64,000 nt of DNA from Phycisphaerae bacterium (GTDB lineage Bacteria; Planctomycetota; Phycisphaerae; SM23-33). The notes beneath the pieces are model-generated. The model was not told where the DNA came from. It searched no databases and saw only the letters and a list, made by a program, of their open reading frames with translations. The DNA lies in contig JAWLCQ010000001.1 in NCBI GenBank assembly GCA_041687095.1, positions 25,664-89,663 of the forward strand, given 5' to 3'. Below are positions 35,586 through 64,000 of the stretch, piece after piece. A program made the position numbers and the translations under genes. Each line of letters opens with the position of its first letter. Position 1 is the stretch's first letter.

Positions 35586-35692
35586 TCATACGCATCCCAG
35601 TTAATTCTCGGGCAGCGTCGGTCTGACGTGGTTGCTCCGCTGCGCTCCGCAAACCACGGCACCCACCCGAGAATCAAGTGGAACGCGTATCA
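35586..35692 (-). repeat. Copy 2 (inverted) of the roughly 105-nt intergenic repeat seen at 14517-14626
   Basis: Its reverse complement, atacgcgttccacttgattctcgggtgggtgccgtggtttgcggagcgcagcggagcaaccacgtcagaccgacgctgcccgagaattaactgggatgcgtatg, aligns with copy 1 at about 90 % identity. It lies between the convergent esterase and nucleoside hydrolase genes. Confidence 0.6.
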
Positions 35693-35749
35693 TGCCCTGC
35701 CGGATCAGGGCCTGGTGATCGTGCGTGTTCATTTGCGGGCTCCTGGGGT

Positions 35750-36694: not shown

Positions 36695-36713
36695 GCGGGG
36701 CTCCTTTGGAAAA

Positions 36714-36859
36714 TGGTAACCGTTCACGGGGTGCCACCCTCAAGCGGCGCCGTTCAGCCGCTTGGGGGTGCTGCGGCGTGGGGAGCCCCACACCCCCAAG
36801 CCGCGAACAGCATGCGGCTTGAGGGTGGCACCCGGTTTGAACGGTCCCGTGAACGGTTA
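36714..36859. repeat. 146-nt nested triple palindrome (three concentric stems) between the rhamnosidase stop and the nucleoside hydrolase start
   Basis: Outer arms ggtaaccgttcacggg / cccgtgaacggttacc, middle arms gtgccaccctcaagc / gcttgagggtggcac, inner arms ccgcttgggggtg / cacccccaagccgcg. Coordinates are approximate to within 1-2 nt. Confidence 0.75.
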
Positions 36860-36970
36860 CGGAAAACGAAAGTCTTCGCAGCGCGATCCCGCCCGGAGGG
36901 GAAGGCCCCTCCCTCTGCCTCGACCCCCGAGCATTCTGCTGGCATCGAGGACGAGCGGGCCTGTCTGCTG

Positions 36971-39337: not shown

Positions 39338-39367
39338 GATTGCCGTCCTGGCCCGCCCGGGTCGGGT

Positions 39368-40372: not shown

Positions 40373-40578
40373 GCTTCGCCTTTCCCAGCCAGAACAACGC
40401 CGGGTCGTTCCGTGTGTCGCGGACGCACCCGCCGCCACAGTGGTCGCCCACGCACGACGGGAACACTCCCGCGACCCAGAGATAGCAGGAATCGGCCTGC
40501 TCGTACAGCCCCAGACTGGGCGGCCCACACCAGGCGCGGCGGGGTCGAACGTGGCGGGCGGTTACCAGGGGATCGGCC

Positions 40579-41613: not shown

Positions 41614-41689
41614 GATCAGCTCCTTGCGATGGTCGGTCCATTATACCGGTCGGGCCCCGGTGCAGCAGCCCACGCTGCGCGGGGCGGCG

Positions 41690-45155: not shown

Positions 45156-45827
45156 GTGAGGGAGCAGGAAATGGTCGCTCGTTTCGCTGCAATGGTTTGT
45201 CTCGTGGTGTGTGGTTCCGCGGTCCCGGTGCACGCCGCGATGGTTCTGGGCCTGGAGTGCGACACGTATTTCGCCAGGCCCGGGGACGTGCTGGAGCTGC
45301 GGATTCTGCTGGATGTGGATGACGCGGCGGCGGGGTGGCAGGCGCCGGCGGCGGGGCTGTTCTCGGCCGGGGCGGCGGTGAGGTTCGCCCCCGCCCTGGG
45401 GGCCGTGGCGGACGTGTCGGACATCCTTCTTCCGGGGGCGCTGTCGGAGAACGGAGCGGGCGCCCCCGCCCGCCGGGAGGTCGCCCCGGGATTCGCGGGG
45501 TTCTTCGGGGGGCTGCTGATGACCCTGGACCCGTTTACGCAGGGCTACGGCGAGCCGCTTCTGGCAACGGTGCGGCTGCAGGTGGCCCTGGGGGCGACGG
45601 GGAGCTTTCCGATCCAGTTGGACACGTATTTCCCGGCCCCGATGTCGAACCTCGTGACGTGCGACGCGCAGTCGTTGGACGACGAGGTGGAGTACCGGCC
45701 GTCGACGGTGGTCCTCATCCCCGAGCCGCTCGCCCTGTGCCTTGTGGGCGTGGGGTCCGTGGCGATGCTGTCCCGTCGGCGGGCGCGTCTGGGCCGGGGC
45801 CCGGGGCACGCCAAGGCTCGGGGCTGA
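45156..45827 (+). CDS. PEP-CTERM sorting-signal protein (putative exosortase substrate), secreted
   Basis: N-terminal signal peptide MVARFAAMVCLVVCGSAVPVHAAM; C-terminal VVLIPEPLALCLVGVGSVAMLSRRRAR is a PEP motif plus TM helix plus Arg cluster. GAGGGAG SD precedes the start. Confidence 0.75.
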   Translation: MREQEMVARFAAMVCLVVCGSAVPVHAAMVLGLECDTYFARPGDVLELRILLDVDDAAAGWQAPAAGLFSAGAAVRFAPALGAVADVSDILLPGALSENGAGAPARREVAPGFAGFFGGLLMTLDPFTQGYGEPLLATVRLQVALGATGSFPIQLDTYFPAPMSNLVTCDAQSLDDEVEYRPSTVVLIPEPLALCLVGVGSVAMLSRRRARLGRGPGHAKARG

Positions 45828-46005
45828 GTACGCCGGGGCCCGGCAGGCGTTTCGGGGGGAGGCAAGCGCATCTCTTCGTGCCGTGCCGTTTTCAGAATTC
45901 ACGATGGCAGCAAACCCCATCGTCGCTCCGACGATGGGGACCGGACAATGCGATTGAACCGCGGGCGTGCCCACGAGGCGCGCCCGTCACCCAAGGAGAG
46001 GGCCT

Positions 46006-49000
46006 ATGTCCGCGGATGCGGTGCAGCGCGCCAAGGTGCGCGGGAGCCTGACGAACGGGTCGGGGCGGATCGAGCTTCTGGAGCAGCGGATTCTTCTCAG
46101 CGGCACGCCGCTCCCCGACGCCGCCCGCCTGGGCCTGATCGAGGGCCTGACGGAGTTCGCCCAGTGGACCGACCGCCTGGGGCAGACGGAGGCCTTCACC
46201 ACGGGGCTCCCGCTGAGCGACGGGGCCACCCTGGGCACGGTCACCGCCGCCGGGGACGTCGTGCAGACCTATCTCGTGGATCGCGTCTGCCAGGTGCTCC
46301 AGAGTCCCGGAGCGACGCTGGAGGACGTGGTGAGCGCCCTGCGGGATCTGGGCGGCAGCTTCGTCGGGGATCTCGGGGGCCGGCAAGTTCCGCTGGACGT
46401 GCTGGTCGACCCGGCAGCCGTCGTCGGGGCATGGGTGGATTCCGAGATCTCCTTCTCCCTGCCGTTCCAGGCGCTGCTGCGCCCGCCGTCCGGGGTGGAC
46501 CTGGACGACGCGCTGGGGGCCCTGGGGTTCACCTCGGGCGCCGAATTCGCCCTCGATGCCCTCGGGAGCCTCACGCTGGACCTGACGTTCGGGTTCGACC
46601 TTTCCGAAGGCCTCGGTCAGGCCGAACAATTCTTCCTCCGCCCCGTCGAGATGCTGCTGGAGGCGGACCTGTCCGGCGCCGACTTCGATCTGCCCGATCT
46701 GCGCATGGGCTTCATGGATCTGGGAATCACGCACGGATCGATCTCACTGTCCGGATTGGCCGACGTGAGCTTCGTCAACCCCGACGCCGACCTCCTGGGC
46801 AGGATCACCCTCGATGAACTGCGGAACACGGCGATGGACGTGCTGGCCGCCGTGACGCCCGGGGGCACGCTCCAGGCGTCGCTGCCGCTGTCGGGGGTGC
46901 TGGGGGCCATGGGCCTGGGAGCCCCGCAGATCTCGCTGAACTGCCTGGACGTGTTCCAACTGCCGGTGGAGATGGGCTTCAATGCCGACTTCGAGGCGCT
47001 GCTGCCCCTGGGGCGGATCGATCCGGCGATGGTGCTGGAGGCGTTCGACAGCCTCGGGGCGTCGTTGACGTCGCTGCAGCGATCCGACGTGTTCGCGCGG
47101 ATCGAGGGACTGGGCGCCCAGAAGCTCTCCGATCTGCTGCGGCTGGGGGAGAACCTCCGGGGGATCATCGACGAGGTGCTGATGCGCCCGATCGATGGCG
47201 CCCACGGGCTCTACGAGTCGGCCTTCGACTCGGCCCAGAGCCTGCTGGAGCGCCTGGCGGCCTACCCGCAGAGCGTCCTGAGCAGCAGTGCGGACTACCT
47301 GGACGGCGTGCTGACGTACACGCTTCGTTTCGCCGCGAGCGACGCCCTGGAGGGGGACTTCGCCTACGACTACTCCGACGGTCCGCTGTCCCTGAGCGCT
47401 ACGGGCACGGTCAGCGGCGAGGTCGGGACCGAGGTGGCGCTGACGCTGGGGCTGGACCTGTCGGCCCTGTCGGCGGAGGTGATCGCGGCCGGGGCCGCCC
47501 CGGTCGGTGGGCAACTGGATCGCTCGGCCGAGTTCTCCGTGCAGGTGGGATCGGACGCGCCCGTGCGCGTGACGGTTCCCGCCGAGGCGACGGCAGACAA
47601 CGCCGGCCTGGACGATCTGGTGGCCGACATCAACGCCGCGCTGGCCGACGCGGGGCTGGTGGCCTGGACGGGTGCGGGGGCGGTGCTGCTGGTCGAGGCC
47701 CGCCGGGTCACCGTCGAGACCGCCGACGGGGAGCGGCAGCGCATCGCGCTGCGGACGCTGGGCCCGTGGGTGGCGGCTCGCCTGAGCGTCACGCCCGGGG
47801 CGGGGGCGGGGCAGCTTGGCTTCACGAGCGCCATGGAAGACCACTGCCGCCCCGAGGACTTCGCGTTCGTGCAGGACGCGGGGGCGTCGGCGAGCATGCT
47901 TGTGGCGGCCCAGATGCCCGAGGGGCACGGGCGCCTGGGCATGCTGGGTGGGATCACGTTGACAAACGGAGCCGCCTGGGTCGGCGGGACCGGGTACACC
48001 CCCGCGAGCCCCGTCCCAGCCACCGTGTCGTTCCAGATCGGGCAGGCGGGCGTTCGCTACGGTCTGGGCGACCTGGCGGAGACGATCGGGTCCGACGCGG
48101 CCGGTCTGGTCGAGGACTCGCTGACGACGGACGTGCAGGCGGGCTACCAGTTCACGGTGACGATCGAGGGCCAGACCGCCGAGTTGCTGGGCCTGGACCC
48201 GCTGGCGGTGCGGAGCATCGAGGTGCTGTACCCGGACGTGGTGGGCGGCCTGGCGCCGGTCATCAGCACCGTGGGGATGGACGAGCTGCTGGCCGCGGGG
48301 CAGCAGATCACGCGCGGGCAGATCGTCGAGGCGCTGCACGCCCTGGTGGACTTCCTGCAGGGGCTCGAATCGCTCCAAGGCCCGCTGAGCTGGCGCCTGC
48401 CCGGAACGGGCCTGAGCGTCAACGAGATGGTGGACTGCGCCCAGGATCTCGCGAGGCTCATCGAGCGGATCAACGCCGAGGGGCTCACCGCGCTGAACGA
48501 CAGCCTGTCGGGCCTCGCCGCCACCGTCCGCGACGTGCTGGGGCTCGCGGAGGACCAGTTCCTCCTGCGGATCGAGCCCGCGTCGGCCGCCGGGGAGGCC
48601 GCACTGCGGATGACGCTGGACCTCGACTACGCCTTCGACCGCCAGGCGGCGGTGAACCTGGACCTCGAAACGCTCATGGGGGCGAGCCTCTGGCCCCAGA
48701 TGGCGGACTACACGAGCATCCTCGGCGAATCGGGCGGGGGGACCGTTCGCGTGGACGGCAGCGCCCACGTCACGATCGACCTGGGGGTGGGCCTGTCGAG
48801 CCTCGATCCGTTCCTGTACGAGGGCACCGCCATCGGCGGGGCGCTCCGCGTGCAGGGGCGCGACCTGGCGTTCGACCTCACGCTGGGCCCGCTGCCGGGC
48901 ATGGCCGTCGCGGGCGGGCATCTGCTGGTGGGCGACTGCCCCGAGGGCGGACCGGCGGCGTACGGTGCGGGCGAGATCCCGGCCGCTGCGTTCCGCGTGG

Positions 49001-52000
49001 GCCTCACCGACACCGATCCCGCCACCGTCGAGCGCTACTACCTCTCGTCCATCGCCGACAGCGACGTGACGGGGACGCTGGACGCGCAGGTGGACCTGGT
49101 CCTGCCCTTCGAGGGCGACTGGGTGGACCCCGCCGACGCGGACCTGTGGCTGCTGGCGGGCGTGGACGCGCAGGGCGCCCTGGCGGACGTCGACGGTGAC
49201 TTCCCGACGTTCGTCATGCCCGACACGCTGAACCTCGAGGCGATGATCGACGGGCTGCGGACGCTGCTGACCCGCCTCCGCGACGCCTTGGGCACGCAGG
49301 CGTTCAACCTCAGCCTGCCCATCGTGGGCACGCAGCTCAACACCGCCTACCTCGACTCCCTGCTCGCCCGCCTGGGCGGTTGGTCGCCCTACGACGCCCT
49401 CCACGCCGCCACCTGGGCGACGAACAACCTCGCGGCGATGTTCGGGGCCTCCGCCCAGATCCAGGCGGCCGACACCGGGGACATGGACGCCGCCGACGCG
49501 GCGGCCGAGTGGATCATCCAGCTCTCCGACACCTACGCCTTCGGGGCCGCCGACGTGGACTTCGACCTGGGCCTGCCCGGGCTGGGGCTGGACATCGACG
49601 CCCACGCGGACGTGAGCCTCGACTGGGTCTTCAACCTGGGCCTGGGGTTCAGCAAGAACAAGGGCTTCTACCTCATCACCGACGACGGGGGGTTCGCGAC
49701 GGGCCTGGCGTTCGCCGGAGAGTCGCCCACGCTGGGCGTGGCGCTCACCGCGGGCGTCACCGATCTCGACGCGAGCGGGCGACTGGGCTTTCTGAACCTG
49801 ACGGCCGAGGCGATCCCCGGGGCGCCCATCGGGGCGAGCGGGCAGTTTGCCATCGACCTTTCGGGCCTCAACGGGCGGGTGTACTACAACCGCCTGGCGT
49901 CGTCGATCTACGACGTGGACGTCGCCTACGCCCTGTCCGCCGACGTCAATGCGCGGCTGGAGATCGCCTACAGCGCCAACTTCCCGTCGATCCTGTCGGA
50001 CCTGGTCATGCACTGGTCGTTCGACAACGACGACGCCACGGTTGACGCGCCGCTGTCGCTCGCCCTGGAGGACATCCGCATCGACCTGGGCGGGTATCTC
50101 GGTGGGGTCGTTTCGCCCGTGGTGGAACGCATCAACGAGGTCTTCGAGCCCCTGCAGCCGATCCTGAACGTTCTCAACACGACCGTGCCGGTGGTCTCGT
50201 ACGTCCTGGACCGCGACGTGACGATCCTCGATCTCGCCATCATGGCCGGGGGCTCGGGGGGCTACGACGTCGAGTTCCTCTCGGACGTCGCGGCCGTCGT
50301 CGACCTCGCCGGGCGGCTGCCCGCGCTCCAGTCGCACTACATCCACCTGGGGACGTACACGTTCGGTTCGGGCCTCGTGTCCGCCGACTCGCCGCTGGAC
50401 CTGGCGGTCAACGGCGGGGCGTTCGAGGGCAACGAGAACGCCCTGGTCGACGCCCGCAACGCCGGCGGCGGGTTCGGGGCGTTCCTGGACGACCTGCAGG
50501 AGATCGGGATCGAGATCCCGCTGCTGGCGGAGCCCCTCCGCGTCGTCGAGTTGTTCCTCGGCCGCGATGTTGAACTGGTGCAGTACACCACCCCGCGCCT
50601 GGCGCTGGACATCGACTTCCGCCAGCAGACCCCGATCATCTTCCCGTGGCTGGTGTTCACGATCGGGATGGACGCGAGCATCTCCGCGCAGGCGGCCTTC
50701 GGGTACGACACGCGCGGGTTGCGGCAGTACGCCGACGGGGGCGACACGGGCGACCTGCTCAACGGGTTCTACATGCGCACGGGCCCGCAGTACCCGCTGA
50801 TCCGCTTTGCGGGGCACGCCGCGCTGGGCCTGGGCGTGAGCCTCGGGGGCGTCGTCGCCGCCGGGGTCGAGGGCGGGATCGGGCTCGATGGGCACATCTA
50901 CGCCACCGACGCCGACGGCGACGGGCGCCTGCACTGGGACGAGCTGCCCGCGTTTGAACCGGGCGAGATCCTGTCGCTGTTCGATTGCGACGGGAGCATC
51001 TACTTCGACGTCCGCCTGTGGTGGGAAACGCCGATCGACGACGGAACCTACACGCTGGCGAAGGTGACGCTGATGGACTTCGGGGCCGGCACCGGCGGGG
51101 CCATCGAGCACGAGGCGGACATCGAGTTCGACCAGCGCGCCATGGGCAATTCCGTGGACCTCGGCCAGGCCCCGACCGCTCGCGTGTACCACCCCGAGCT
51201 GTGGGATTCGCGCGGAGTGCAGTGGTACCGCTTCTCCACCGACCGCGACAACGAGGTCTTCGATTTCTCGGCCGTCCGCGCCAGCGCGGGCAACGACATG
51301 GCCCTGGCCGTCTTCAACGCCGACGGGGAGCGCCTCGCCATGTCGGCCGGCTGGGGCAGTTCGCAGGCGACGCTCAACGACGTCCGCCTGGGCGAGCGGG
51401 GCGTGTACTACCTCGCCGTCATGTGCAACGACCCCGAGTGGCCGCTGGAGAGCGTCTCCGTCACGCCCAACACCGACGCGCTGACGGGCACGGTGGTGTA
51501 CTACGTCAACGACCTGGACGACTCGCCCGACCCGTACCTGATGGGCAACCCCTACACGTCCGCCCCGGGCGACGACGCCAACAGCGGTTTGGACCCCGCG
51601 CACCCCAAGGCGAGCATCTCCGCGGTGGTCTCATCGTTGACAGGCAACGAGGGGCGCGTCTACATCCTCGTCGACAGCGGGCACTACCGCGTGGACGACG
51701 AGGCCGAGCGCATCCGCCTGGCGCAGGGCAACGTGTGGTTCGTCGGGACCTGGCACACGAACGTGACGTTCGCCGCCGGTCCGCTGTTCGACCTGAACAA
51801 CGCCGGGGACGTCCACCTCTACGGGTTCAATCTCTACGGCGAGGGGACCGCGACGGCGGTCCGTACGCGCGGGGACGGCCTGTGGGACGCAGCCGCGGGG
51901 CATTATGCACCCGTCGATTCGCTCGTCATCGAGGGCAACCGCTTCGACGGCGTGGGCGTGGGCATCGACGCCGGGTGCTTCCAGAGCGTGGTGATCTCCG

Positions 52001-55000
52001 GCAACCGCTTCACGGGCGAAGGGGCCGCGGGCGTGGTGTTGGGCACATCGGCGATGGCGATGGTCTCGGGCAACAGCTACCGCGGGTACGTGGGGCAGTA
52101 CGGGCTGCGCACGGGGGGCCGGTTCAGCGCGTTCGTCGCCGACAACGAGATCGCCGGGACCGTCGCGTCCGTCTGGGCCGACGACGGCGGGTCGGTGTAC
52201 CTGCGCGGCAACACGATCAGCGGGAGCGTCGTGCTTCGCGGCGACCGCGACAACGTGGTCCGCGGGAACACCATTACCGGCGACGTGCGCCTCATCGCAC
52301 CGGCCGATCCGAACTGGGGCCAGATCGTCTGGCCGGGCGAGTGGGTGGAGGCCAACGCCCTGGCGCCCCTCCCCTACGACGAGGCGTTCTCCCAGGCGAT
52401 CGTGGGCAACGTGATCTCCGGGGCAGTCCGCGTCGAGTACGCGACAGCCACCCTCATCGAGGGCAACGTGTCCCTGGGCTCGGTGGTGGTGGCCGCGGGG
52501 AACAAGAACACGCAGATCCCGATCATCGTGCGGCTGAACGAGTCCATCGACGCCGGGGCGGGCGTCGCCGTCGAGGTGACGGGCCTGTCGTGGGCGGACA
52601 TCACCGACAACGCCCTGATCCGCGGGGCCACGGGCGTGCTCATCGACACCAGCGACCTGTGCACCGTCAGCGGGAACCTCATCGACGCGACGCAGTACGG
52701 CCTGCGGATCGTCAACGCCGGCAGCATGCTGGCGATGGAGAACCGCATCGACGCGGGCGTCGAGGGCGTCCGCATCGAGGGCAACTACTTCGTGCGGCTG
52801 GAGGGCAACGAGATCTCGGGCGGAGAGTCTTCGATCCGCGGGATCGGCAGTTGGGTGGTCCCGCGGGTGACGGGCAACCGCCTGACGGGCGGCGTGTGGT
52901 TCGAGGGCGACGGGCTGCTCGTCCCCCCCATGCTCCGCCGCCTGGGGCAGTTCCGCGAGAACGACGTCGACGGGACCGTGACGATCGACACCGGGCACCG
53001 CCTGGAAGTCCTCGGGAACCTCCTGCGGACCGGGCGACTCACCGTGACGACGGGGGGCAATGCGACGGTTTCGGACAACCTCGTGAACCAGGAGATGATT
53101 CTCACGATCGGCGGGTCCGCCGACGTGTCGTGGAACCTCGTGGACCTGGGCGACCTGCGCCTGACCGTCGCTTCGGGGCAGGCGTGGACCGTGTCCGACA
53201 ACACGCTCACCGGCGGATACGTCGGCGGGGGCGACCTCGTCGTCAGCGGCGGGACGCGGGCGCAGGCCCAGGGCAATACGGTTGTCAACGGCGACCTGCG
53301 AGTCACGATCACCGACGCCCCGACGTCTGCGACGCCCGCGAGCGTCCTCACCGACAACACGGTCTCCGGCGTCCTGTCGCTCGTCGGCGGGCCTGGCGCG
53401 GACATCCACGACAACCCGTCGCTCGGCGGTCTGCACGTGGCCATCGGCGGGGCGTGGGGGCAGGCGGATCGGGCCTGGCACACGCGGATCACCAACAACC
53501 CGGTCATCACCGGGGACTCCCACGAGGGGCGCGGGACGATCGACGTGACCGTGCCCGGGACGCTGCTGGTGAGCGGCAGCGTGGTGCAGCGCGGGCACAG
53601 CTACTTCACGGCGGCCGGGGCTGTGCGGATCGAGGGCAACGACTTCGTCGCGGGCGACCTGTTCGTCGCCATCCCCGGCGACAGCGGGACCTTCGGCGAG
53701 GCCCCCAGCGTTCTGGCGGGCAACTGGGTGCGGGCGGGGAGCGTGTGGTACAGCGGGGGGGGCGGGCTGGACCTCTACGACAACCCGATCCTCGACCGCA
53801 CGGTGGACATCGAGATCACCCAGCCGTGGACGGCCATGCCCGCGGGGCGGATGTACCACACCCGCGTCTTCACCACTCCGGGCGGGGCGCAGGCCATCGG
53901 CAACCTGCTCCTCGACATCCCCGGATCCGCCGAGGTGCGGGACACGCACTTCGACGGGTCGTGGGGCCTGCAGATCGGCGGGTCGAGCCTCGTGGGGCAC
54001 CTCGTCGAGAACGTCACGACGACATTCGGTGGGATCACGATCACGTCGGGCCCGGCGGCAACCCTGCGCGGGAACACCGTGTGGGGCGGGGTGACGGTGA
54101 ACGTGGCGGGCAACGAGTTGCCCGCGGGGACGGACTGGGCGACGGTCGTCGAGGACAACACCGTCAGCGACGGGATCTGGCTGAACCTCGACACGCGCGC
54201 GGAGGTCCGCCGCAACACCATCACCGAGAGCGGGCAGGCCTTCAGCGACGGCAGCCTGCGGATCGCGGGCGCGGCCGACAGCGGGCACGTGGTCACGGGC
54301 AACACGATCCACGGCGGCATCGAGATCACCAGCGGGCCGTGCGCGACGATCGAGGGCAACTCGCTGGCGTTCGGGAGCATCGTCCTGAACATCCCGGACG
54401 ACGAGGTCATCGTCGGGCAGGCGAACGTCACGCACATCCGCGGGAACGTGCTGGCGATGGGCGGGGTCTCGGCCCGCCTGGGCGCCGCCGCCGTCATCGA
54501 ACCGCTCGCCCTCAGCGGCGGGGGCGAACAGCCCAACGTGGTGAGCTTCCTCACGCTGACGGGCAGCTCGGCCGCCGCGCACCAGGTCCGCGGGAACCGC
54601 GTGACGGGCGACATCAGCGTCTCCGCCGGCCCGGCGGTCGTCATTGAGGACAACACCGGCCCGCTGGCGAGCGATCCGCTGGGGACGATCCGCGTCCGCC
54701 TCGGGGGGGCGGGGCAGGACGGGAGCATCGTGTCCGGCAACCGCGCGGGGACGATCGACCTTCAACTCGCCTCCGGCGGGACGATCGGCCACAACACCGC
54801 CGGCGCGGGCATGCTCCTGACGCTCGGCAACGCCGGTGGGGTGCTGCACAATACCGTGCTCGGCGGCGGGATGGCCCTCGCCGGCAGCGGCGGGGACGGG
54901 CATCTTGTGCAGGGCAACGTCGTCACGGGTGGGGTGCGAGTTTCCGCCTCGGCGGCCATCGCCCACGACATCACGGGCAACACGATTTCGGGCGCAGCGT

Positions 55001-58000: not shown

Positions 58001-61000
58001 CGTACGGGAACACTCCGCAGGCGTCGCGCAGCCCGGTGAGCTACGTCATGCTCCTGACCCCCGAGGGCGGGAGCGTGGTGATGACCGGGCGGTCTGCCAC
58101 CGTCCGCTGGCGGAGCGAGGGCTTCACCGGTGCGGTGGACATCGAACTGCTCCGCGGGGGGGCGTTCCTGCGGACCGTCGCCACCGGCGTCGCCAACAGC
58201 GGCGAGTACGCCTGGATCGCCCCCGCCGACCTGCCCGCGGGCAGCGACTACTCGCTCCGCATCACCCGCCCCGGCGGGGTGTCGGGCGCCAGTGCCACGT
58301 TCAGCGTCGAGGCCTTCCAGGGCGTGTACTACGTCAATGACGGTTCGGTGAACGGTGACGGGGCCGACTGGACCACGGCGGCGGGGGCGATGGGCAACAC
58401 CGGCCTGAGCCCCGACTCGCCCAAGGCGTCCATCGCGGCCGTCTTCGAGAGCTACGAGCTGGTCCCGGGCGACGTCATCTACGTCGACGCGGGCGTGTAC
58501 ACGCTGTCGAGCAACCTGCTGCTGACGGCCGCCCAGAGCGGGATCCGGATCGTGGGCTACCATGACGACGCCCACCCGGATCGCCAGGCGGTGTTGGACC
58601 GCGCCAACACGCTCGCCGGCAGCTACGCCATACAGCTCTCGGGCGCCTCGGGCGCCTCCCTGGAGCACCTGTCGTTCACCGGGGCGTACTCCGGCATCTA
58701 CGCCGCCGACGCCGTGGTCTCCGACGGGATCCGCATCGAGAACTGCCGCTTCTACGGCAATGAGACGTGGGGCGTGTGGCTGGGGGCGGGATCCGCCAAC
58801 GTCGTCGTCGAGGGAAGCCACTTCAGCGGCATGGCCGTTGCGGGCATCGACCAGAGGGGCGGCGTGTATCTCGGCGGCAGCGGGGCGCAGGTGCGCGGCA
58901 GCACCATGCACGACTTCGCCCTCGACTGGTACTACGGGATCGAGACCACCGGGGCGGACGCGACGGTCGATGGCAACACGATCACGAACGTCTTCAATGG
59001 CCTCCATGTGACGGGCGTCCGCTCGATGGTGAGCGGGAATACCGTGAGCGGGGGACGGACGGGCATGAACCTGTCGGGCTTCTCCAACGTCGCCGACTGG
59101 ATCGAAGCCTCGGGCAATATCGTGCACGGGCAGACGTGGCAGGGCATCTACGCCGGTAGCGGCGTGCGGGTCGTGGGCAACACCGTCTACAACGTGATCC
59201 ACTCGGAGCACACCGGGTCGCCCTCGGGGGCGATCCACGCCACGGGCGACATCCTCGATAACGTCGTGTACGCCAGCACCTGGGGCATCCGCTCGGGCGG
59301 GTACACGGGCATGACGGTCCGCGGGAACCTGGTGTACGGCTGCACCATCGGGATCTTCACCTGCTCGGGCACGCTGGAGGCCAACGAACTCCGCAACAAC
59401 GTGACCGGGATCAAGATCAGCGGGTACTACGAGGGCGTCGTCCGCAACAACCTCATCCGCGACAACACCCAGGCGGGCCTGGTGGTGTACGCCACCACGC
59501 CCTACGGGACGCGCCTGGTTGAGAACAACACCTTCCATCAGCCCACCGGCGACGCCATCCGCCTCCAGGAGACGGCCCTCAACGTCATCCTCCGCAACAA
59601 CATCATCCACGTCGGGGGCGGCTATGGCGTGTACGTGAGCAACGACAGCCAGAGCAGCCTGACCAGCGACTACAACCTGATCCACACCACCGGCAGCGGG
59701 AAGGCGGGCTACTGGCAGAGCGACCGCGCCACGCTCGCCGACTGGCGAAGCGCGACCGGAAAGGACGCCTGGAGCCTCTCGCAGGACCCGCTCTTCGTCG
59801 ACCCCGCGGGCGGGGACTTCCACCTCCAGAGCCCCCACGGCAGTTACCACGGCGGCCGGCTGGCCGTCGCGCTCGACTCCGCCACCGGCCTGCCCGTCTC
59901 CGTCGCGGGCCAGTGGGTCTCCGACGCCGCGCAGTCCCCCGCCATCGACCGCGGAGACGCGGGCGTCAGCTACGCCAACGAGCCCGCCCCCAACGGGGCG
60001 TTCGTCAACCTCGGAGCCTTCGGGGGCACCGCCCAGGCGTCCCGCAGCCCCGACGCGTACCTGACCGTCCTGTCCCCGTCTGCGGGGGAGACGTGGATGA
60101 CTAACCGCACGTCCGTCCTCCGTTGGCGCAGCCAGGACATGGATGGGGCGGTCGCCATCGAACTGCTTCGCGGGGGGACCGTGCAGAGCGTCATCGCCGC
60201 TTCCGCCCCCAACAGCGGCTCGTACGAGTGGCTGCTGCCCCGCGAACTAGCCGAGGCGGGCGACTACTCCATCCGCATCACCCGCTCGGGAGAGGTGGTG
60301 GGGCAGAGCGGGACGTTCAGCATCGTCCCGGCCGCGGCGGCTTACTACGTCAACGACGGTTCGGTCAACGCCGCGGGCGACTGGACGACGGCGGCCGGTA
60401 ACGATGCCGCCGACGGGCTCACGCGCTCGACTCCGCGGTCGTCGATCGCGGCGATTCTCGCGAGCTATCAGCTTTCCGCGGGCGACGTCATCTACGTGGA
60501 CGCGGGCGTCTACACGCTGTCGAGCAACCTGGTGCTGTCGGCGGCGCAGAGCGGGATCCGCATCGTCGGATACCACGACGAGGCCCACGAGGACCGCCGC
60601 GCCGAACTTCGCCGAGGCAACACCTCGAGTTCCAGCTACGCCATCCAACTCGCCGGGGCCGCCGACGTGAGCCTCGAACACCTGCACATCACGGGCGCCT
60701 ACCACGGGGTCTACGCGGCCAACTCGGCCGGGGCGACGGGGCTGACGATCCTCGACTGCACGATCTACGGCAACAGCAGCTACGGCGTGTGGGTGGGGAC
60801 GGGCAACCACGGCGCCGGCGTGGCCGACAGCGAACTGCACGGGCTGCTGTACAACGGCGTGCGGCAGGTGGACGGGGTGTACCTGGGAGGCAACTCGTCG
60901 CGGGTCATCGACAGCTACCTGCACGGCCACTCCAGCGGGAACAGCGACGCCATCGAACTCCCCGGGACCGACGCGGTGGTGAGCGGCAACGTGCTGGTGA

Positions 61001-64000
61001 ACAACCATAACGGGATCCGAACCAGCGGCGTGCGGGCCCGCGTGAGCGACAACCGCGTCGAGGGCGGGCAATCCGGGATGCTGATCTACGGACAGAACAA
61101 CGCCCGCTCGGAGTGGGCCGAGGTCGTCGGTAACACCGTCACCGGCCAGAACCATCAGGGCATCTACGCCGTCTACGCGCTGGTGCAGGGCAACACCGTC
61201 TATGCGGTGAACCACATCGAGGGCTCGGCGTCGGGGGCGATCGTCGGCAGCGGCTCCGAGATCGTCGGCAACACGGTGTACGACAGCAAGTGGGCCATCC
61301 GCAACGGCGGGCAGCAGGGTTTCACCCGCGACAACGTGGTGTACGGGAACGTGGTGGGGCTCTGGGTGGACCGCTCCCCGACGGAGGGCAACGTCGCCTA
61401 CTCCAACGGGATCGGCATCCAGGCGACGGGGCAGTCGCCCCGCGTCGCGAATAACCTCGTCTACGGCAATACCAGCGCGGGCGTGGTGCTGTACTACACC
61501 TACGGCACCCCGGCGGTGGAGAACAACACGGTTTACCAGACGGCGGGGGACGGTGTTCGCCTGGAGGGCAGCTCCCCGGCCCTCAACGTCGCGCTGCGGA
61601 ACAACATCGTCGTGATGGCGGGGGGGAACTACGCCCTGAACATCAGCAACGGCAGCCAGCAGGGCTTCACGAGCGACTACAACCTCTTTCACACCACCGG
61701 CGGGGCGAGGTTGGCGCTTCTGCTCGGGGAGCAGTACGCCGACGTCGCGACGTGGTTCTATCGGACCGGGTACGACCGCCACAGCCTCCAGGCCGATCCG
61801 CTCTTCTCCGACCCCGACGGGGCGGACGGGCGCCTGGGCTACGCGGGCGGGGTCAACGGCGGGGCGGATGACGACTTCTCGCTGTCGCCGGCGTCCCCGG
61901 GTGTCGGGGCGGGCGACCCGGGGACCTACGCCGCAGCGCAGCCGCCGGCGGGCCCGGGACGGATCACCCTCGGCCACCAGGGCAACACCGCCGGGGCCCA
62001 GACCGGCAGCGGTTCGGGCGTGCAGGTCGTCTCGCCCAACGGGTTGGACCGCGTGGCGGTGGGGGAGACGGTCTCCGTCACCTGGCAGTCGTGGGGCCTC
62101 GCCGCGGTTCGCCCCGTCGCGCAGGTCAACGCGGGCGGGACCGGCAGCGGCTACTGGAACACCGACGTCCTGCGCAGCGGCGGGACGACGGGCACGATCG
62201 CCGAGCCCGTCAACACCGCGGGCGTGACCGATCCCGCCCCCGCGTCCGTCTACGCCTCCTACTCCTCCGGGGCGTACTTCAACCCCATGAGCTACGCCAT
62301 GAGCGTCCCCGACGGGACGTACACCATCCGCCTGCACTTCGTGGAGCCCTCGCAGCACAGTTCCGTCGGGTCGCGGCGGTTCGACGTGCGGCTGCAGGGC
62401 GAGACGGTCCTGTCGAACTTTGACATCCACGCGACGGCGGGCGGGCGCTACATCGCCGTCGCCCGCGACTTCGTCGTCACCGCCTCGGGCGGGACGGGCA
62501 TCCAGATGAGCTTCGTCGAGCGAGCGGGCTACGCCATCCTCAGCGCCATCGAGATCCTCTGCGATCAGCCCCAGGGCCAGTCCCCCGTCTCGGCGGACTT
62601 GGACCTCTCCACCGACGGTGGGGCCACCTGGTCCCCGCTGGCCGCCGGCGTGCCCATGGACCGCCTGGGCCGCGGACAGTACGACTGGACCGTCACGCAC
62701 GCCCCCGCCGCTGACGTCCGCCTGCGCGTGACGGCCGGTGGGGTCTCGGACGCCTCCGACCGCTCCTTCCAGATCGTCTCGGCCGGCAACGACTACTACG
62801 TCAACGACGCAAACGTCGCGGCGGGCGACTGGACGACGGCTGTCGGCAACGATGCCAACTCGGGCAAGAGCCCTGACGCCCCGATGGCGAGCCTGGCGGG
62901 GCTGCTGGCGCTGTATCGCCCGGGCGCGGGCGACCGCGTCTTCGTCGATGCGGGCACGTACAACCTGGCCTCCTCGCTGGAGCTGGGGCCGGAGTTCACC
63001 GGCGTGCAGATCCTCGGGTACGCCGACGCGAACCACCCCGATCGCGAAACCGTCCTCGACCGCAACAACGTCTCCATGTCGGCGATCGTCTTCCGGGGGG
63101 CCGACGACGTTCTCCTGTCGGACCTCGCGATCACCGGGGGGTACGCGGGCGTGGCCCTGGCGGGGTCGGCCGACAGCGACCGCGTGACCCTTCGCGGGGG
63201 GCGGATGTTCGGGAACGACTACGCGGGCGTGAGCGTCGCCGCCGGCAACGACTTCGTCCGCATCGAGAACGTCGAGATCGACGGGCTCGCCCACGACGGC
63301 GTGCGGCAGAACGTCGGGATCTACAGCGTGGCCGACAACGCCACGATCATCGGCAACCGCATACACGGGCACACCGACGTCAAGTCGATCGACATCGCCG
63401 GCGGGTTCGCCGAGGTCGCCTTCAACGACATCTCGGGAAGCGCGTACGGCCTGTACCTGTACAGCGGATCGACGCAACGCAGCATGGTCCACGACAACGA
63501 GGTGCAGGCGGGCACGGGGTACGGAATGTACCTCATAGGCAACGTCCTGGCGCAGAACAACCGGATCCACAACATCTACGGGATGAACACCGGGTACGGC
63601 GTCTATGCGACGAGCGCCGTGGAACTGCTCGCCAACGAGGTCTATGACTCCGCCCGCGGGATCTACTCCAGCGGGCCGATCCGCAGCAACGTCGTGCATG
63701 GCTGCCAGTACTACGGGATCCACACGCAGGACCGCGACCAGATCGTCGAGGGCAACCGCGTCTACGACAACGCCGTGGGCATCCAGTACCACGGCGGGGG
63801 GCAGGTCGTGGGCAACTGGGTCTACTCGAACATGGTGGGCATCCAGTCCGGCTCCAGCGCCCGCGGGCGGATCGAGGGCAACGTCGTCTACGCCAACGAC
63901 GACGCGGCCATCGTCCTGAGCGGATCCAGCGTCTACGACATCGACGTGCTGTCCAACACCGTCTACCAGCACGTTGGCGATGCGATCTCGCTGGGAGGCG
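46006..64000 (+). CDS. Giant modular cell-surface protein, 3'-truncated by the window (at least 5998 codons in window): N-terminal non-repetitive region, PPC-like and EF-hand-like segments, then at least 5 tandem modules of Ig-like domain plus right-handed beta-helix (PbH1/NosD-like) repeats, with a malectin-like carbohydrate-binding insert
   Basis: Frame 1 (positions of form 3n+1) is open and protein-like from the ATG at 46006 (AAGGAGAG SD, in-frame TGA at 45955) to nt 64000. I checked this by translating about 15 separate stretches. It is absent from the ORF track, presumably because there is no in-window stop; all listed minus-strand ORFs here are antisense shadows. Motifs: DADGDGRLHWDEL (around 50900), PPC-like VQWYRFSTDRDNEVFDF...LAVFNADGE (around 51200), recurring YYVND..G..P.APKAS...GD.I.VD.G.Y.L module heads at about 51496, 56401, 58321, 60343 and 62791, beta-helix rungs (GN.V.GN..GI), malectin-like RRFDVRLQGETVLSNFDI...LSAIEIL (around 62330-62560). 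Confidence 0.8.
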   Translation, partial: MSADAVQRAKVRGSLTNGSGRIELLEQRILLSGTPLPDAARLGLIEGLTEFAQWTDRLGQTEAFTTGLPLSDGATLGTVTAAGDVVQTYLVDRVCQVLQSPGATLEDVVSALRDLGGSFVGDLGGRQVPLDVLVDPAAVVGAWVDSEISFSLPFQALLRPPSGVDLDDALGALGFTSGAEFALDALGSLTLDLTFGFDLSEGLGQAEQFFLRPVEMLLEADLSGADFDLPDLRMGFMDLGITHGSISLSGLADVSFVNPDADLLGRITLDELRNTAMDVLAAVTPGGTLQASLPLSGVLGAMGLGAPQISLNCLDVFQLPVEMGFNADFEALLPLGRIDPAMVLEAFDSLGASLTSLQRSDVFARIEGLGAQKLSDLLRLGENLRGIIDEVLMRPIDGAHGLYESAFDSAQSLLERLAAYPQSVLSSSADYLDGVLTYTLRFAASDALEGDFAYDYSDGPLSLSATGTVSGEVGTEVALTLGLDLSALSAEVIAAGAAPVGGQLDRSAEFSVQVGSDAPVRVTVPAEATADNAGLDDLVADINAALADAGLVAWTGAGAVLLVEARRVTVETADGERQRIALRTLGPWVAARLSVTPGAGAGQLGFTSAMEDHCRPEDFAFVQDAGASASMLVAAQMPEGHGRLGMLGGITLTNGAAWVGGTGYTPASPVPATVSFQIGQAGVRYGLGDLAETIGSDAAGLVEDSLTTDVQAGYQFTVTIEGQTAELLGLDPLAVRSIEVLYPDVVGGLAPVISTVGMDELLAAGQQITRGQIVEALHALVDFLQGLESLQGPLSWRLPGTGLSVNEMVDCAQDLARLIERINAEGLTALNDSLSGLAATVRDVLGLAEDQFLLRIEPASAAGEAALRMTLDLDYAFDRQAAVNLDLETLMGASLWPQMADYTSILGESGGGTVRVDGSAHVTIDLGVGLSSLDPFLYEGTAIGGALRVQGRDLAFDLTLGPLPGMAVAGGHLLVGDCPEGGPAAYGAGEIPAAAFRVGLTDTDPATVERYYLSSIADSDVTGTLDAQVDLVLPFEGDWVDPADADLWLLAGVDAQGALADVDGDFPTFVMPDTLNLEAMIDGLRTLLTRLRDALGTQAFNLSLPIVGTQLNTAYLDSLLARLGGWSPYDALHAATWATNNLAAMFGASAQIQAADTGDMDAADAAAEWIIQLSDTYAFGAADVDFDLGLPGLGLDIDAHADVSLDWVFNLGLGFSKNKGFYLITDDGGFATGLAFAGESPTLGVALTAGVTDLDASGRLGFLNLTAEAIPGAPIGASGQFAIDLSGLNGRVYYNRLASSIYDVDVAYALSADVNARLEIAYSANFPSILSDLVMHWSFDNDDATVDAPLSLALEDIRIDLGGYLGGVVSPVVERINEVFEPLQPILNVLNTTVPVVSYVLDRDVTILDLAIMAGGSGGYDVEFLSDVAAVVDLAGRLPALQSHYIHLGTYTFGSGLVSADSPLDLAVNGGAFEGNENALVDARNAGGGFGAFLDDLQEIGIEIPLLAEPLRVVELFLGRDVELVQYTTPRLALDIDFRQQTPIIFPWLVFTIGMDASISAQAAFGYDTRGLRQYADGGDTGDLLNGFYMRTGPQYPLIRFAGHAALGLGVSLGGVVAAGVEGGIGLDGHIYATDADGDGRLHWDELPAFEPGEILSLFDCDGSIYFDVRLWWETPIDDGTYTLAKVTLMDFGAGTGGAIEHEADIEFDQRAMGNSVDLGQAPTARVYHPELWDSRGVQWYRFSTDRDNEVFDFSAVRASAGNDMALAVFNADGERLAMSAGWGSSQATLNDVRLGERGVYYLAVMCNDPEWPLESVSVTPNTDALTGTVVYYVNDLDDSPDPYLMGNPYTSAPGDDANSGLDPAHPKASISAVVSSLTGNEGRVYILVDSGHYRVDDEAERIRLAQGNVWFVGTWHTNVTFAAGPLFDLNNAGDVHLYGFNLYGEGTATAVRTRGDGLWDAAAGHYAPVDSLVIEGNRFDGVGVGIDAGCFQSVVISGNRFTGEGAAGVVLGTSAMAMVSGNSYRGYVGQYGLRTGGRFSAFVADNEIAGTVASVWADDGGSVYLRGNTISGSVVLRGDRDNVVRGNTITGDVRLIAPADPNWGQIVWPGEWVEANALAPLPYDEAFSQAIVGNVISGAVRVEYATATLIEGNVSLGSVVVAAGNKNTQIPIIVRLNESIDAGAGVAVEVTGLSWADITDNALIRGATGVLIDTSDLCTVSGNLIDATQYGLRIVNAGSMLAMENRIDAGVEGVRIEGNYFVRLEGNEISGGESSIRGIGSWVVPRVTGNRLTGGVWFEGDGLLVPPMLRRLGQFRENDVDGTVTIDTGHRLEVLGNLLRTGRLTVTTGGNATVSDNLVNQEMILTIGGSADVSWNLVDLGDLRLTVASGQAWTVSDNTLTGGYVGGGDLVVSGGTRAQAQGNTVVNGDLRVTITDAPTSATPASVLTDNTVSGVLSLVGGPGADIHDNPSLGGLHVAIGGAWGQADRAWHTRITNNPVITGDSHEGRGTIDVTVPGTLLVSGSVVQRGHSYFTAAGAVRIEGNDFVAGDLFVAIPGDSGTFGEAPSVLAGNWVRAGSVWYSGGGGLDLYDNPILDRTVDIEITQPWTAMPAGRMYHTRVFTTPGGAQAIGNLLLDIPGSAEVRDTHFDGSWGLQIGGSSLVGHLVENVTTTFGGITITSGPAATLRGNTVWGGVTVNVAGNELPAGTDWATVVEDNTVSDGIWLNLDTRAEVRRNTITESGQAFSDGSLRIAGAADSGHVVTGNTIHGGIEITSGPCATIEGNSLAFGSIVLNIPDDEVIVGQANVTHIRGNVLAMGGVSARLGAAAVIEPLALSGGGEQPNVVSFLTLTGSSAAAHQVRGNRVTGDISVSAGPAVVIEDNTGPLASDPLGTIRVRLGGAGQDGSIVSGNRAGTIDLQLASGGTIGHNTAGAGMLLTLGNAGGVLHNTVLGGGMALAGSGGDGHLVQGNVVTGGVRVSASAAIAHDITGNTISGAAYGLEVTGGAPATVHDNVRIEGDSIGIRIVGNARVTVEDNPAILGTAWGVWADGDGAVLTIRGNDIVGGVYVDSLLGALIESNEIHDGTTGVYLTGGSTDVVRGNVVRGFSTGVQFLSAAAEAYGNEIHSNVTGVRTPATLGGSDWIAPNAIHHNTVGVEALAGATVRFNRLEANAIGIDAAGSVSVHHNVLADNSAQGVLVDAASNVQVVNNTIVTADGFGDGVVVQGGSSGAAVRNNILWSRGGYGLYVANDSQVGLASDYNNLYASGSGRVVWYQRAYDDLLDWQLDSLYDAHSIGYTRIDPLRDDPRFVDPAGGDYRVQMGSTGIDRGDPASDFTLEPSVSGGRINLGAFGGTSEAAQSSAAYLRVEYPDFHADWQVDRARNIRWSQWNVAGDVRVEVYRTDGTPAAAVGTFAAAAGECSWSPRMAGLSVDLSQGYRVRVTSVSDGSVFAESREPFYVVPVGGTFYVNDALTGDDQYTTAAGDNRNPGLSPDAPKASVLATLRLYDLGAGDVIRIDDGYYPLPTNLLLGGPGSAGDDEGVHLDGPTLAGSEAVLDRVVTRAGTIAVDVNRADGIELRNLTIRNGQRTLWVREGSERFVGEHLDISGSALDGIRIESGCEDVWLQSLRVHGNGGAGVYAAPARVTLLDSEIANNAGTGVSLPAAGAARIEGNTVSGNAAGIVITHAVAGTTAIVGSLGHGNLVRSNAGDGITAVGRVLVEGNTVSGHTGAAGIRITEGTSAYPEANDNVVSGNATGIESNTRASVRGNLVYDNAVHGIRARGSETLANNVVHDSGVGIQLWSYYTGTIEHNVLYANATAAVRVTGPSTGAISLRHNTIHQTAGDGVRLETTADGVTLDNNIIVVEGGYGIYVSDNSQPGFSSDDNLLRATGGGRVGYWQGEAGSLAQWRQASGQDSRSLSDDPRFVNAAGGDYHLQSLTGSMHGGTLAVVLDGATGLPVAAAGTLEFDGAQSPAIDRGRAGSAYDQEPAPHGAFANLGAYGNTPQASRSPVSYVMLLTPEGGSVVMTGRSATVRWRSEGFTGAVDIELLRGGAFLRTVATGVANSGEYAWIAPADLPAGSDYSLRITRPGGVSGASATFSVEAFQGVYYVNDGSVNGDGADWTTAAGAMGNTGLSPDSPKASIAAVFESYELVPGDVIYVDAGVYTLSSNLLLTAAQSGIRIVGYHDDAHPDRQAVLDRANTLAGSYAIQLSGASGASLEHLSFTGAYSGIYAADAVVSDGIRIENCRFYGNETWGVWLGAGSANVVVEGSHFSGMAVAGIDQRGGVYLGGSGAQVRGSTMHDFALDWYYGIETTGADATVDGNTITNVFNGLHVTGVRSMVSGNTVSGGRTGMNLSGFSNVADWIEASGNIVHGQTWQGIYAGSGVRVVGNTVYNVIHSEHTGSPSGAIHATGDILDNVVYASTWGIRSGGYTGMTVRGNLVYGCTIGIFTCSGTLEANELRNNVTGIKISGYYEGVVRNNLIRDNTQAGLVVYATTPYGTRLVENNTFHQPTGDAIRLQETALNVILRNNIIHVGGGYGVYVSNDSQSSLTSDYNLIHTTGSGKAGYWQSDRATLADWRSATGKDAWSLSQDPLFVDPAGGDFHLQSPHGSYHGGRLAVALDSATGLPVSVAGQWVSDAAQSPAIDRGDAGVSYANEPAPNGAFVNLGAFGGTAQASRSPDAYLTVLSPSAGETWMTNRTSVLRWRSQDMDGAVAIELLRGGTVQSVIAASAPNSGSYEWLLPRELAEAGDYSIRITRSGEVVGQSGTFSIVPAAAAYYVNDGSVNAAGDWTTAAGNDAADGLTRSTPRSSIAAILASYQLSAGDVIYVDAGVYTLSSNLVLSAAQSGIRIVGYHDEAHEDRRAELRRGNTSSSSYAIQLAGAADVSLEHLHITGAYHGVYAANSAGATGLTILDCTIYGNSSYGVWVGTGNHGAGVADSELHGLLYNGVRQVDGVYLGGNSSRVIDSYLHGHSSGNSDAIELPGTDAVVSGNVLVNNHNGIRTSGVRARVSDNRVEGGQSGMLIYGQNNARSEWAEVVGNTVTGQNHQGIYAVYALVQGNTVYAVNHIEGSASGAIVGSGSEIVGNTVYDSKWAIRNGGQQGFTRDNVVYGNVVGLWVDRSPTEGNVAYSNGIGIQATGQSPRVANNLVYGNTSAGVVLYYTYGTPAVENNTVYQTAGDGVRLEGSSPALNVALRNNIVVMAGGNYALNISNGSQQGFTSDYNLFHTTGGARLALLLGEQYADVATWFYRTGYDRHSLQADPLFSDPDGADGRLGYAGGVNGGADDDFSLSPASPGVGAGDPGTYAAAQPPAGPGRITLGHQGNTAGAQTGSGSGVQVVSPNGLDRVAVGETVSVTWQSWGLAAVRPVAQVNAGGTGSGYWNTDVLRSGGTTGTIAEPVNTAGVTDPAPASVYASYSSGAYFNPMSYAMSVPDGTYTIRLHFVEPSQHSSVGSRRFDVRLQGETVLSNFDIHATAGGRYIAVARDFVVTASGGTGIQMSFVERAGYAILSAIEILCDQPQGQSPVSADLDLSTDGGATWSPLAAGVPMDRLGRGQYDWTVTHAPAADVRLRVTAGGVSDASDRSFQIVSAGNDYYVNDANVAAGDWTTAVGNDANSGKSPDAPMASLAGLLALYRPGAGDRVFVDAGTYNLASSLELGPEFTGVQILGYADANHPDRETVLDRNNVSMSAIVFRGADDVLLSDLAITGGYAGVALAGSADSDRVTLRGGRMFGNDYAGVSVAAGNDFVRIENVEIDGLAHDGVRQNVGIYSVADNATIIGNRIHGHTDVKSIDIAGGFAEVAFNDISGSAYGLYLYSGSTQRSMVHDNEVQAGTGYGMYLIGNVLAQNNRIHNIYGMNTGYGVYATSAVELLANEVYDSARGIYSSGPIRSNVVHGCQYYGIHTQDRDQIVEGNRVYDNAVGIQYHGGGQVVGNWVYSNMVGIQSGSSARGRIEGNVVYANDDAAIVLSGSSVYDIDVLSNTVYQHVGDAISLGG

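Follow-up and report, generated by a model that had tools for sequence, protein, structure and literature searches.

A 21.1-kb gene encoding a 7,027-residue LEPR-XLL protein with repeated N-terminal units and five β-helix units in a Phycisphaerae bacterium

The window analysed here, a stretch of 64,000 nt from a Phycisphaerae bacterium (contig JAWLCQ010000001.1), ends inside a giant gene: in frame +1, the open reading frame (ORF) that begins at ATG 46006 runs to 63999 through 5,998 codons with zero stops, and is still open at the window end. Its nearest upstream stop is an in-frame TGA at 45955, and a Shine-Dalgarno sequence, AAGGAGAG, lies 7 nt before the ATG. Because the window is ~70% G+C and long ORFs are abundant in every frame, an open frame alone is little proof of a gene, and coding potential was therefore tested. 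The G+C content of the giant ORF at codon positions 1, 2 and 3 is 0.67, 0.49 and 0.94, respectively, and the third-position value (GC3) lies between 0.91 and 0.96 in all 1.5-kb slices, in agreement with other genes of the window that have Pfam support. Trained on these genes, a log-odds score for codon usage reaches +0.56 bits per codon in the giant frame and is negative in the other five, a pattern that holds along all 18 kb. The competing ORFs (1,241–1,619 aa on the minus strand, up to 1,220 aa in the other plus frames) have a first-position G+C (GC1) of ~0.95 and Arg/Val/Ala/Gly-rich products, and are thus shadow frames. The giant ORF itself is missing from the program-made ORF list of the window because the lister skips ORFs that run off the window. 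An earlier reading of this DNA (hereafter the original prediction) had proposed an uninterrupted ORF of ~18 kb from 46006, preceded by the TGA and the Shine-Dalgarno sequence, dropped from the list because it has no stop inside the window and overlain by shadow ORFs. This description proved right throughout: the three peptides that it quoted are present at the positions given, no in-frame stop lies between 46006 and the window end, and both GC3 and the codon log-odds favour the giant frame, not the minus strand.

The end of the gene is known from a database copy. Exhaustive HMMER search of residues 1–1200 against 1.84 billion representative proteins retrieved a 7,027-aa protein (P0006) that has the same initial Met and is 100% identical over all 5,998 residues encoded in the window; a word-indexed protein search with residues 1–1900 missed it and returned five distant relatives only. 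P0006 comes from an NCBI record, was seen on a single 123,013-bp contig, is alone in its cluster and is unnamed. According to this copy, the full gene measures 21,084 nt including the stop and ends at window-equivalent position 67089, ~3.09 kb beyond the window, which contains 85% of the 21.1-kb gene; the encoded protein has a mass of 728 kDa and an isoelectric point of 4.36. The closest related loci (L001 and L002) belong to two 'uncultured Planctomycetaceae' metagenome-assembled genomes (MAGs). Both are collinear with the giant protein from about residue 300 to residue 5998, with 35–64% identity, and their ORFs extend 1,120 and 1,035 aa, respectively, beyond the equivalent of the window end before they stop. 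The length estimate drawn from these two loci was reached independently, before P0006 was found, and agrees with it. A database protein of 7,177 aa (P0008) is the full L001 orthologue, and the two collinear orthologues measure ~7,100 aa. The giant ORF is a real, intact and conserved gene, for which the full length, the collinear orthologues and the map of five β-helix units described below are new in this analysis. The boundaries considered for the gene are the following:

46006–64000, plus strand: partial coding sequence, residues 1–5998 of the 7,027-aa protein, identical to P0006 residues 1–5998
45967–46005, plus strand: extension from a candidate alternative start, GTG 45967, which would add 13 Arg-rich residues, MPTRRARHPRRGP

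GTG 45967 is the first start codon past the TGA at 45955, and its Arg-rich extension resembles the leaders of the family. We judge it the less likely start, since the Shine-Dalgarno sequence, the start of P0006 and the MSRA... starts of the orthologues favour ATG 46006.

A gene of this kind is not unusual for its phylum: giant genes abound in planctomycetes, about half of whose surveyed genomes contain genes longer than 20 kb, with products presumed to be surface proteins (PMC5177795). Like the giants of that 2016 survey, the present gene exceeds 20 kb and has a predicted cell-surface product; whereas such surveys counted and size-ranked genes, the family of the giant protein is dissected here, with ~177 representatives of its N-terminal module. 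The view of the original prediction that giant genes of this sort are mostly unannotated does not apply, as a protein set derived from NCBI already includes the full 7,027-aa product, whose N-terminus is recognised by a curated model of NCBIfam. Note that lysine makes up only 0.25% of the giant protein (16 Lys in 7,027 aa) versus 0.4–4% in most other window genes; the lysine content of the orthologues, 0.85–1.2%, is also above that of the giant protein.

The first quarter of the protein consists of a short leader with a LEPR-XLL motif, a repeat array and a putative pre-peptidase C-terminal (PPC)-type domain, which are laid out as follows (residue numbers refer to the giant protein; pLDDT, predicted local distance difference test):

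46066–46116, plus strand: LEPR-XLL motif RIELLEQRILLSGTPLP, residues 21–37 (NCBIfam NF012209)
46108–46995, plus strand: N-terminal repeat unit 1, residues 35–330 (AlphaFold2 pLDDT ~85–96; hhalign to units 2–4, 98–99%)
46993–48105, plus strand: N-terminal repeat unit 2, residues 330–700 (hhalign to unit 1, E=7e-17; to unit 3, E=1.5e-13)
48268–49185, plus strand: N-terminal repeat unit 3, residues 755–1060 (hhalign to unit 1, E=9.5e-16 over 241 columns)
49225–50097, plus strand: N-terminal repeat unit 4, residues 1074–1364 (hhalign to unit 1, E=3.8e-13 over 254 columns; AlphaFold2 model)
50083–51105, plus strand: divergent fifth unit, residues 1360–1700, which holds the EF-hand-like loop (hhalign to unit 1, 86%)
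50908–50943, plus strand: EF-hand-like Ca-binding loop DADGDGRLHWDE, residues 1635–1646 (motif position and conservation in the family)
51154–51507, plus strand: PPC-type β-sandwich, residues ~1717–1834 (family profile and predicted fold)

Residues ~35–1700 have no Pfam, NCBIfam or PDB sequence match. The module that they form is nevertheless collinear with distant relatives, and the exhaustive HMMER search found it in 177 representative proteins, 23 of them at E<=1e-30. BLAST/phmmer self-comparison of the N-terminal 1,950 aa detected no repeats; profile–profile comparison resolved the module into a tandem array of at least four homologous ~300-aa units plus a divergent fifth, with hhalign probabilities of 95–99% and E values of 1e-8 to 1e-17 among units 1–4. 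The repeat nature of this ~1,700-aa module, and its lack of a solved relative, are newly shown here. AlphaFold2 models (pLDDT 78.6 for residues 1–1100 and 65.1 for residues 1000–1960) predict helical bundles alternating with β-hairpins of 18–26 residues per strand. The fifth unit is the most conserved part of the family, and its loop DADGDGRLHWDE fits the canonical EF-hand loop at positions 1, 3, 5, 6, 8 and 12, with residues D, D and E near-invariant in the family alignment (consensus DPDNDGKVHLDEF). The original prediction had pointed to this EF-hand-type loop. Altogether, its overall interpretation stands as regards the giant gene and its domains, and falls short in that it missed the class-defining LEPR-XLL leader and the conserved, repeated ~1,700-aa module.

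The PPC-like segment announced by the same reading holds at the level of the family profile and of the fold: the profile matches six collagenase (ColG/ColH) collagen-binding-domain sequences over their full length (E=0.003–0.006), and the model of the region, with a pLDDT of ~75–89, superposes on 5sv5, 2o8o and 1nqj in Foldseek with a template modelling (TM) score of ~0.6 and a probability of 1.00. It does not hold at the level of Pfam, the region having no match to PF04151 at E<=0.1 or E<=0.01, so that membership of the PPC family is indicated by the predicted fold and not by the Pfam sequence model. A likeness to aerolysin-type toxins (C. perfringens enterotoxin and others in Foldseek) was rejected, as it depended on the PPC domain and was lost once the latter was removed.

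From residue 1832 to about residue 6085, the protein comprises five right-handed parallel β-helix units set between immunoglobulin (Ig)-like spacers:

51499–55965, plus strand: β-helix unit 1, residues 1832–3320 (N-cap at residue 1832, C-cap DDPRFVDPAGGDYRV at residue 3305; Beta_helix, NosD)
56092–56391, plus strand: Ig-like spacer 1, residues ~3363–3462 (aligns with the Kre9_KNH-type spacers of the other super-modules)
56401–57810, plus strand: β-helix unit 2, residues 3466–3935 (N-cap and C-cap motifs; Beta_helix, NosD)
58057–58293, plus strand: Kre9_KNH Ig-like spacer 2, residues 4018–4096 (PF10342, 37 bits)
58327–59835, plus strand: β-helix unit 3, residues 4108–4610 (caps; Beta_helix, NosD, DUF5123; 57% identical to unit 4)
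60073–60324, plus strand: Kre9_KNH Ig-like spacer 3, residues 4690–4773 (PF10342, 35 bits)
60343–61845, plus strand: β-helix unit 4, residues 4780–5280 (cap motifs; Beta_helix)
62221–62490, plus strand: malectin domain, residues ~5406–5495 (PF11721, 49.1 and 51.1 bits for a cut-off of 23; Malectin_like, 24.6 bits)
62794–63999, plus strand: β-helix unit 5, residues 5597 to ~6085, cut by the window end (N-cap at residue 5597; NosD; C-cap at residue 6071 in P0006)

The membership of this region in the right-handed parallel β-helix repeat families is clear from the matches to Beta_helix (PF13229, E=9.9e-107, 16 stretches), NosD (PF05048, E=7.2e-79, 12 stretches) and TIGR03804 (54.8 bits); DUF5123 is also matched. 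Both the long pectin-lyase-fold tracts and the malectin domain had been recognised in the original prediction. Each unit opens with an N-cap, YYVND...G...PKAS, at residues 1832, 3466, 4108, 4780 and 5597, and C-caps follow the pattern DP.FVD..GDYHL. Unit 1 is ~1,490 aa long and the other four ~470–500 aa; the super-modules, ~670 aa each, are mutually 30–57% identical, and their alignment reveals that the malectin domain is an insertion in the fourth Ig-like spacer. The protein resembles CASH-type/NosD proteins in its Beta_helix, NosD and TIGR03804 matches and in its caps (N-cap YYV.....G...PKAS, C-cap DP.FVD..GDYHL), but whereas CASH proteins normally have one β-helix of 300–500 aa, it strings five together, one of them of ~1,490 aa. 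Beyond the window, P0006 continues with the end of β-helix 5, a weak NIDO-like match, Big_5 and two type I dockerin modules (PF00404, 39.8 bits for a cut-off of 22.9, two stretches), and ends with an Ala/Pro/Ser-rich linker followed by a short amphipathic tail, ...LSSLDVIDVLDARADLIAVL. The orthologues carry the same set of C-terminal domains, dockerin included. PDB sequence searches with the N-terminal region and with one super-module gave no match. Pfam detected no TPS domain (PF05860) in residues 1–600, and the N-terminus is not hydrophobic, so the protein does not qualify as a TpsA protein. Note that β-helix unit 1 is about three times the usual domain length and that its internal repeats are weak and degenerate.

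The N-terminus of the protein scores 19.2 bits (as part of a 3,000-aa piece) or 23.2 bits (as an N-terminal fragment) against NF012209, for a curated cut-off of 17. With a motif above the cut-off and near the N-terminus of a very large protein, it belongs to the LEPR-XLL family; its motif begins at residue 24, the range in the family being 9–60. The LE.R.LL motif is common to its relatives: 49 Met-starting family members have [L]E.R.LL within their first 150 residues, and in these the median start of the motif is residue 35, while the segment before it lacks a hydrophobic core and has a median net charge of +7 (leader consensus, [KR][LF].[LF]E.LE.R.LL[SA]). Consistent with the original prediction, which saw no obvious Sec signal peptide, the giant protein has no Sec-like hydrophobic N-terminus but this short charged leader; no transmembrane-grade segment was found anywhere in its 7,027 aa. 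The charged leader and LE.R.LL are present in every planctomycete relative whose 5' end is intact, and four β-helix relatives from Verrucomicrobiota, other PVC-group bacteria and Desulfatiglandales (L060, L072, L074 and L077) begin with hydrophobic signal peptides of the classical type. Among homologues, the LEPR leader and a Sec signal peptide thus stand in for each other, a relation newly noted here, which suggests that the leader is a targeting element. With this leader in the place where relatives carry a Sec signal peptide, the giant protein is probably exported.

The giant protein is therefore a member of a recognised, functionally unstudied class of giant proteins, LEPRxLL N-termini being known in others (bioRxiv 10.64898/2026.03.19.712371; PMC10868602). 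The LEPR-XLL giants (NF012209, 'LEPR-8K') include a Vibrio sp. VB16 protein of ~8,000 aa and Chlorobium chlorochromatii Cag_663/Cag_665. It shares with them (i) a ~24-aa N-terminal LE(P)RxLL motif behind a short leader, extreme size and the absence of a classical signal peptide (PMC10868602; bioRxiv 10.64898/2026.03.19.712371) and (ii) a modular, predicted extracellular Ca-binding character. The Vibrio and Chlorobium examples, however, have RTX, serralysin or haemagglutinin-type repeats and adjoining type 1 secretion system (T1SS) genes, whereas the giant protein has the ~1,700-aa repeat module, five β-helix units and dockerins, and no RTX.

What, then, might such a protein do? Its domain types (β-helix/CASH, Ig-like, malectin, PPC, dockerin and EF-hand-like Ca sites) are characteristically extracellular, and we consider it reasonably probable that it is a secreted, Ca-stabilised, carbohydrate-binding fibre or adhesin. 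Once exported from the cell, it would form a long, Ca2+-stabilised fibre of the beads-on-a-string type, whose length, estimated from 4.8 Å per β-helix coil, would be on the order of 100 nm or more. The CASH-type β-helix units and the malectin domain would bind polysaccharides and may possibly cleave them, and the C-terminal dockerin modules would tether the fibre to a cell-surface partner or bind Ca2+. Such a fibre could act as an adhesin or in glycan capture, in an organism with glycoside hydrolase genes nearby. Of the description 'giant adhesin or S-layer-like carbohydrate-binding surface protein' given in the original prediction, the carbohydrate-binding surface protein or adhesin is retained as the most plausible functional reading; the S-layer-like character is not, since no S-layer family (SLH or other) is found among the Pfam/NCBIfam matches of the protein.

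Several observations weigh against the secreted fibre. None of the family matches of the giant protein names a substrate or a catalytic activity, and the best solved relative of its β-helix module is a weak match to the polysaccharide lyase family 6 (PL6) alginate lyase 7dmk (E=0.013). The AlphaFold2 model of residues 1000–1960 is only moderately confident, and no credible structural relative was found for the N-terminal repeat unit. Finally, there are no secretion-system genes in the window, whose 46 kb upstream of the giant gene were covered, and no conserved neighbour around the related giant genes, the genes that flank them being mutually unrelated (SRP54, cytochrome c/HEAT, dehydrogenase, Fur and PAS kinase).

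An attachment role has also been proposed for the 'dockerin-type' giants of Omnitrophota (bioRxiv 10.1101/2023.11.21.568195), which likewise belong to the PVC group, combine dockerin and carbohydrate-binding modules and are free of transmembrane segments over the greater part of their length. Only the Omnitrophota giants, though, exceed 30,000 aa and have an antiparallel β-helix, discoidin domains, C-terminal transmembrane regions and a conserved secretion locus.

A different possibility, to which we give limited credence, is that the protein is a T1SS giant adhesin of the LapA/MpIBP type, exported C-terminus first through an ABC transporter, a membrane fusion protein (MFP) and TolC. The dockerin modules and the amphipathic tail would then correspond to RTX repeats and secretion signal, and the N-terminal module to the plug or retention module. 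The giant protein has indeed no N-terminal Sec signal, is acidic, as is usual for T1SS substrates, and shows three dockerin-type Ca-binding loops ahead of a disordered linker and the amphipathic tail; in addition, other LEPR-XLL giants have RTX repeats (P0001, P0003, L009 and L041; the Vibrio protein, PMC10868602) or an adjoining TolC-like gene. The likeness extends to the acidic, Ca-dependent, repetitive surface fibre logic of the T1SS adhesins LapA, MpIBP and SiiE, and to their layout, i.e. an N-terminal non-repeat module, a repetitive stalk, distal ligand-binding domains and Ca modules before the C-terminus. However, RTX nonapeptide repeats (PF00353) are absent from all 7,027 aa, in which a regular-expression scan gave one isolated chance match; neither the 46 kb upstream nor the surroundings of the relatives contain ABC transporter, MFP/HlyD or TolC genes; the C-terminal tail of the orthologue is dissimilar; and the RTX repeats of L041 and L009 lie near the N-terminus, not before the C-terminal end. 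Unlike LapA, MpIBP and SiiE, the giant protein has no BIg stalk, its stalk being made of β-helix units, no T1SS adjacent to its gene (46 kb upstream) and no identifiable LapG-type cleavage motif.

Pectate and alginate lyases, like GH28 enzymes and C5-epimerases, have a right-handed β-helix fold. The giant protein could accordingly be imagined as mainly an enzyme, a multi-catalytic polysaccharide lyase, hydrolase or epimerase with one active site per β-helix unit, working together with the adjacent glycoside hydrolases. We regard this as improbable. Besides the fold, the weak match of the module profile to 7dmk and the glycoside-hydrolase cluster upstream would be in keeping with it, and the malectin and PPC domains could serve in the manner of carbohydrate-binding modules. 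But the matches are to generic families only (Beta_helix, NosD, DUF5123 and Disaggr_assoc), with no polysaccharide lyase or glycoside hydrolase family at threshold, and catalytic residues are not assignable. Moreover, the upstream glycoside hydrolases are encoded on the opposite strand, beyond a divergent SNF2/SWIM gene pair, and are therefore not in one operon with the giant gene.

An artefactual origin of the ORF (by chance in DNA of 70% G+C, by misassembly of repeats, or as a dead pseudogene) could be suspected from the numerous long shadow ORFs of the window, the modular and repetitive C-terminal half of the protein and a source that seems to be a draft-assembly contig, but is effectively refuted by a GC3 of 0.94 and a log-odds score positive solely in the giant frame over 18 kb, by dozens of significant domain matches in this frame, by super-modules that, at 30–57% identity, are too divergent for assembly collapse or scrambling, by collinear orthologues of the same length in two independent MAGs and by 7,027 codons without a stop.

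We tentatively put forward a bolder proposal, which we would not rate as likely: the leader, i.e. the charged segment of ~35 aa plus LE.R.LL[SA], might be the address tag of an undescribed Sec-independent route for very large proteins, and the ~300-aa units, for which no solved relative was found, might have a new fold and build the stalk or anchor of planctomycete surface fibres on the side of the cell. If the leader does tag a new route, the family, with its collinear orthologues and its Sec-bearing cousins in other phyla, would make a good comparative system in which to trace that pathway. Planctomycete genomes devote a sizeable share to giant surface proteins, none of which, to our knowledge, has a demonstrated function or export route. 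The present locus provides a cleanly resolved giant, with its full length, its orthologues and a domain map that includes a previously unrecognised ~300-aa repeat unit and the LEPR-XLL leader. In culturable relatives, it could guide work on the exit of 700-kDa proteins from the cell, and on whether the glycan-capturing fibres observed on such bacteria consist of them.

Some other LEPR-XLL giants deserve mention. Two of those with RTX repeats are complete LEPR-XLL β-helix giants (L009:1616-19906, 6,097 aa, and L041:749-19150, 6,134 aa); their RTX repeats are found at residues ~920–975, while T1SS substrates have RTX at the C-terminal end, and the L009 protein has weak metallopeptidase-like matches at residues ~605–670. 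A secretin-domain gene (L067:1-2292, plus strand; Secretin_N, four stretches) lies directly upstream of the gene for a 4,418-aa LEPR-XLL giant that shares the N-terminal module. Among the genes flanking the related giants, it is the sole secretion-related neighbour seen, and it is not conserved at the other loci.

The 46 kb upstream of the giant gene are ordinary chromosome, with genes for protein kinase-like, PLD-type and GGDEF proteins, a PAS histidine kinase and PdxA. A consensus scan for promoters and terminators upstream of the giant gene and an Rfam scan of the window gave no match. The nearest gene on the same strand is a 218-aa ORF (45171–45827, plus strand), 178 bp upstream, with a Sec-type signal peptide, MVARFAAMVCLVVCGSAVPVHA, and a tail, ...IPEPLALCLVGVGSVAMLSRRRAR, that looks PEP-CTERM (exosortase)-like; the ORF has no Pfam or NCBIfam match and the PEP-CTERM reading is drawn from its sequence only. 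Divergent from the giant gene are genes for a SWIM zinc-finger protein and an SNF2-family helicase with DUF3670 (40579–44461, minus strand). The carbohydrate-active cluster (27659–40528) encodes a melibiase/α-galactosidase, a GH43-like protein, a glucuronyl-esterase-like α/β hydrolase, a rhamnosidase and a BNR sialidase-like protein; it fits a polysaccharide-degrading lifestyle, but its orientation is not that of the giant gene.

When a track leaves out ORFs still open at the window edge, precisely the largest genes are hidden, and misleading, kilobase-long shadow ORFs remain in their place. The window contains another such shadow, a 1,881-aa ORF at 35678–41323 (plus strand) with a GC3 of only 0.71, which overlies four Pfam-supported minus-strand genes (nucleoside hydrolase, rhamnosidase, BNR sialidase-like and SWIM). 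At 5753–8506 (minus strand) and 5837–8545 (plus strand), two opposite-strand ORFs of ~900 aa each occupy the same DNA with near-equal codon-position G+C (GC1 ~0.83, GC3 ~0.83), so that GC3 does not decide which strand is coding. Lastly, the regions 14768–19739 (minus strand) and 22805–27586 (plus strand) contain a set of MoxR AAA ATPase, DUF58 and TgpA-like transglutaminase genes and, nearby, a gene for a 1,593-aa VWA/YfbK protein.

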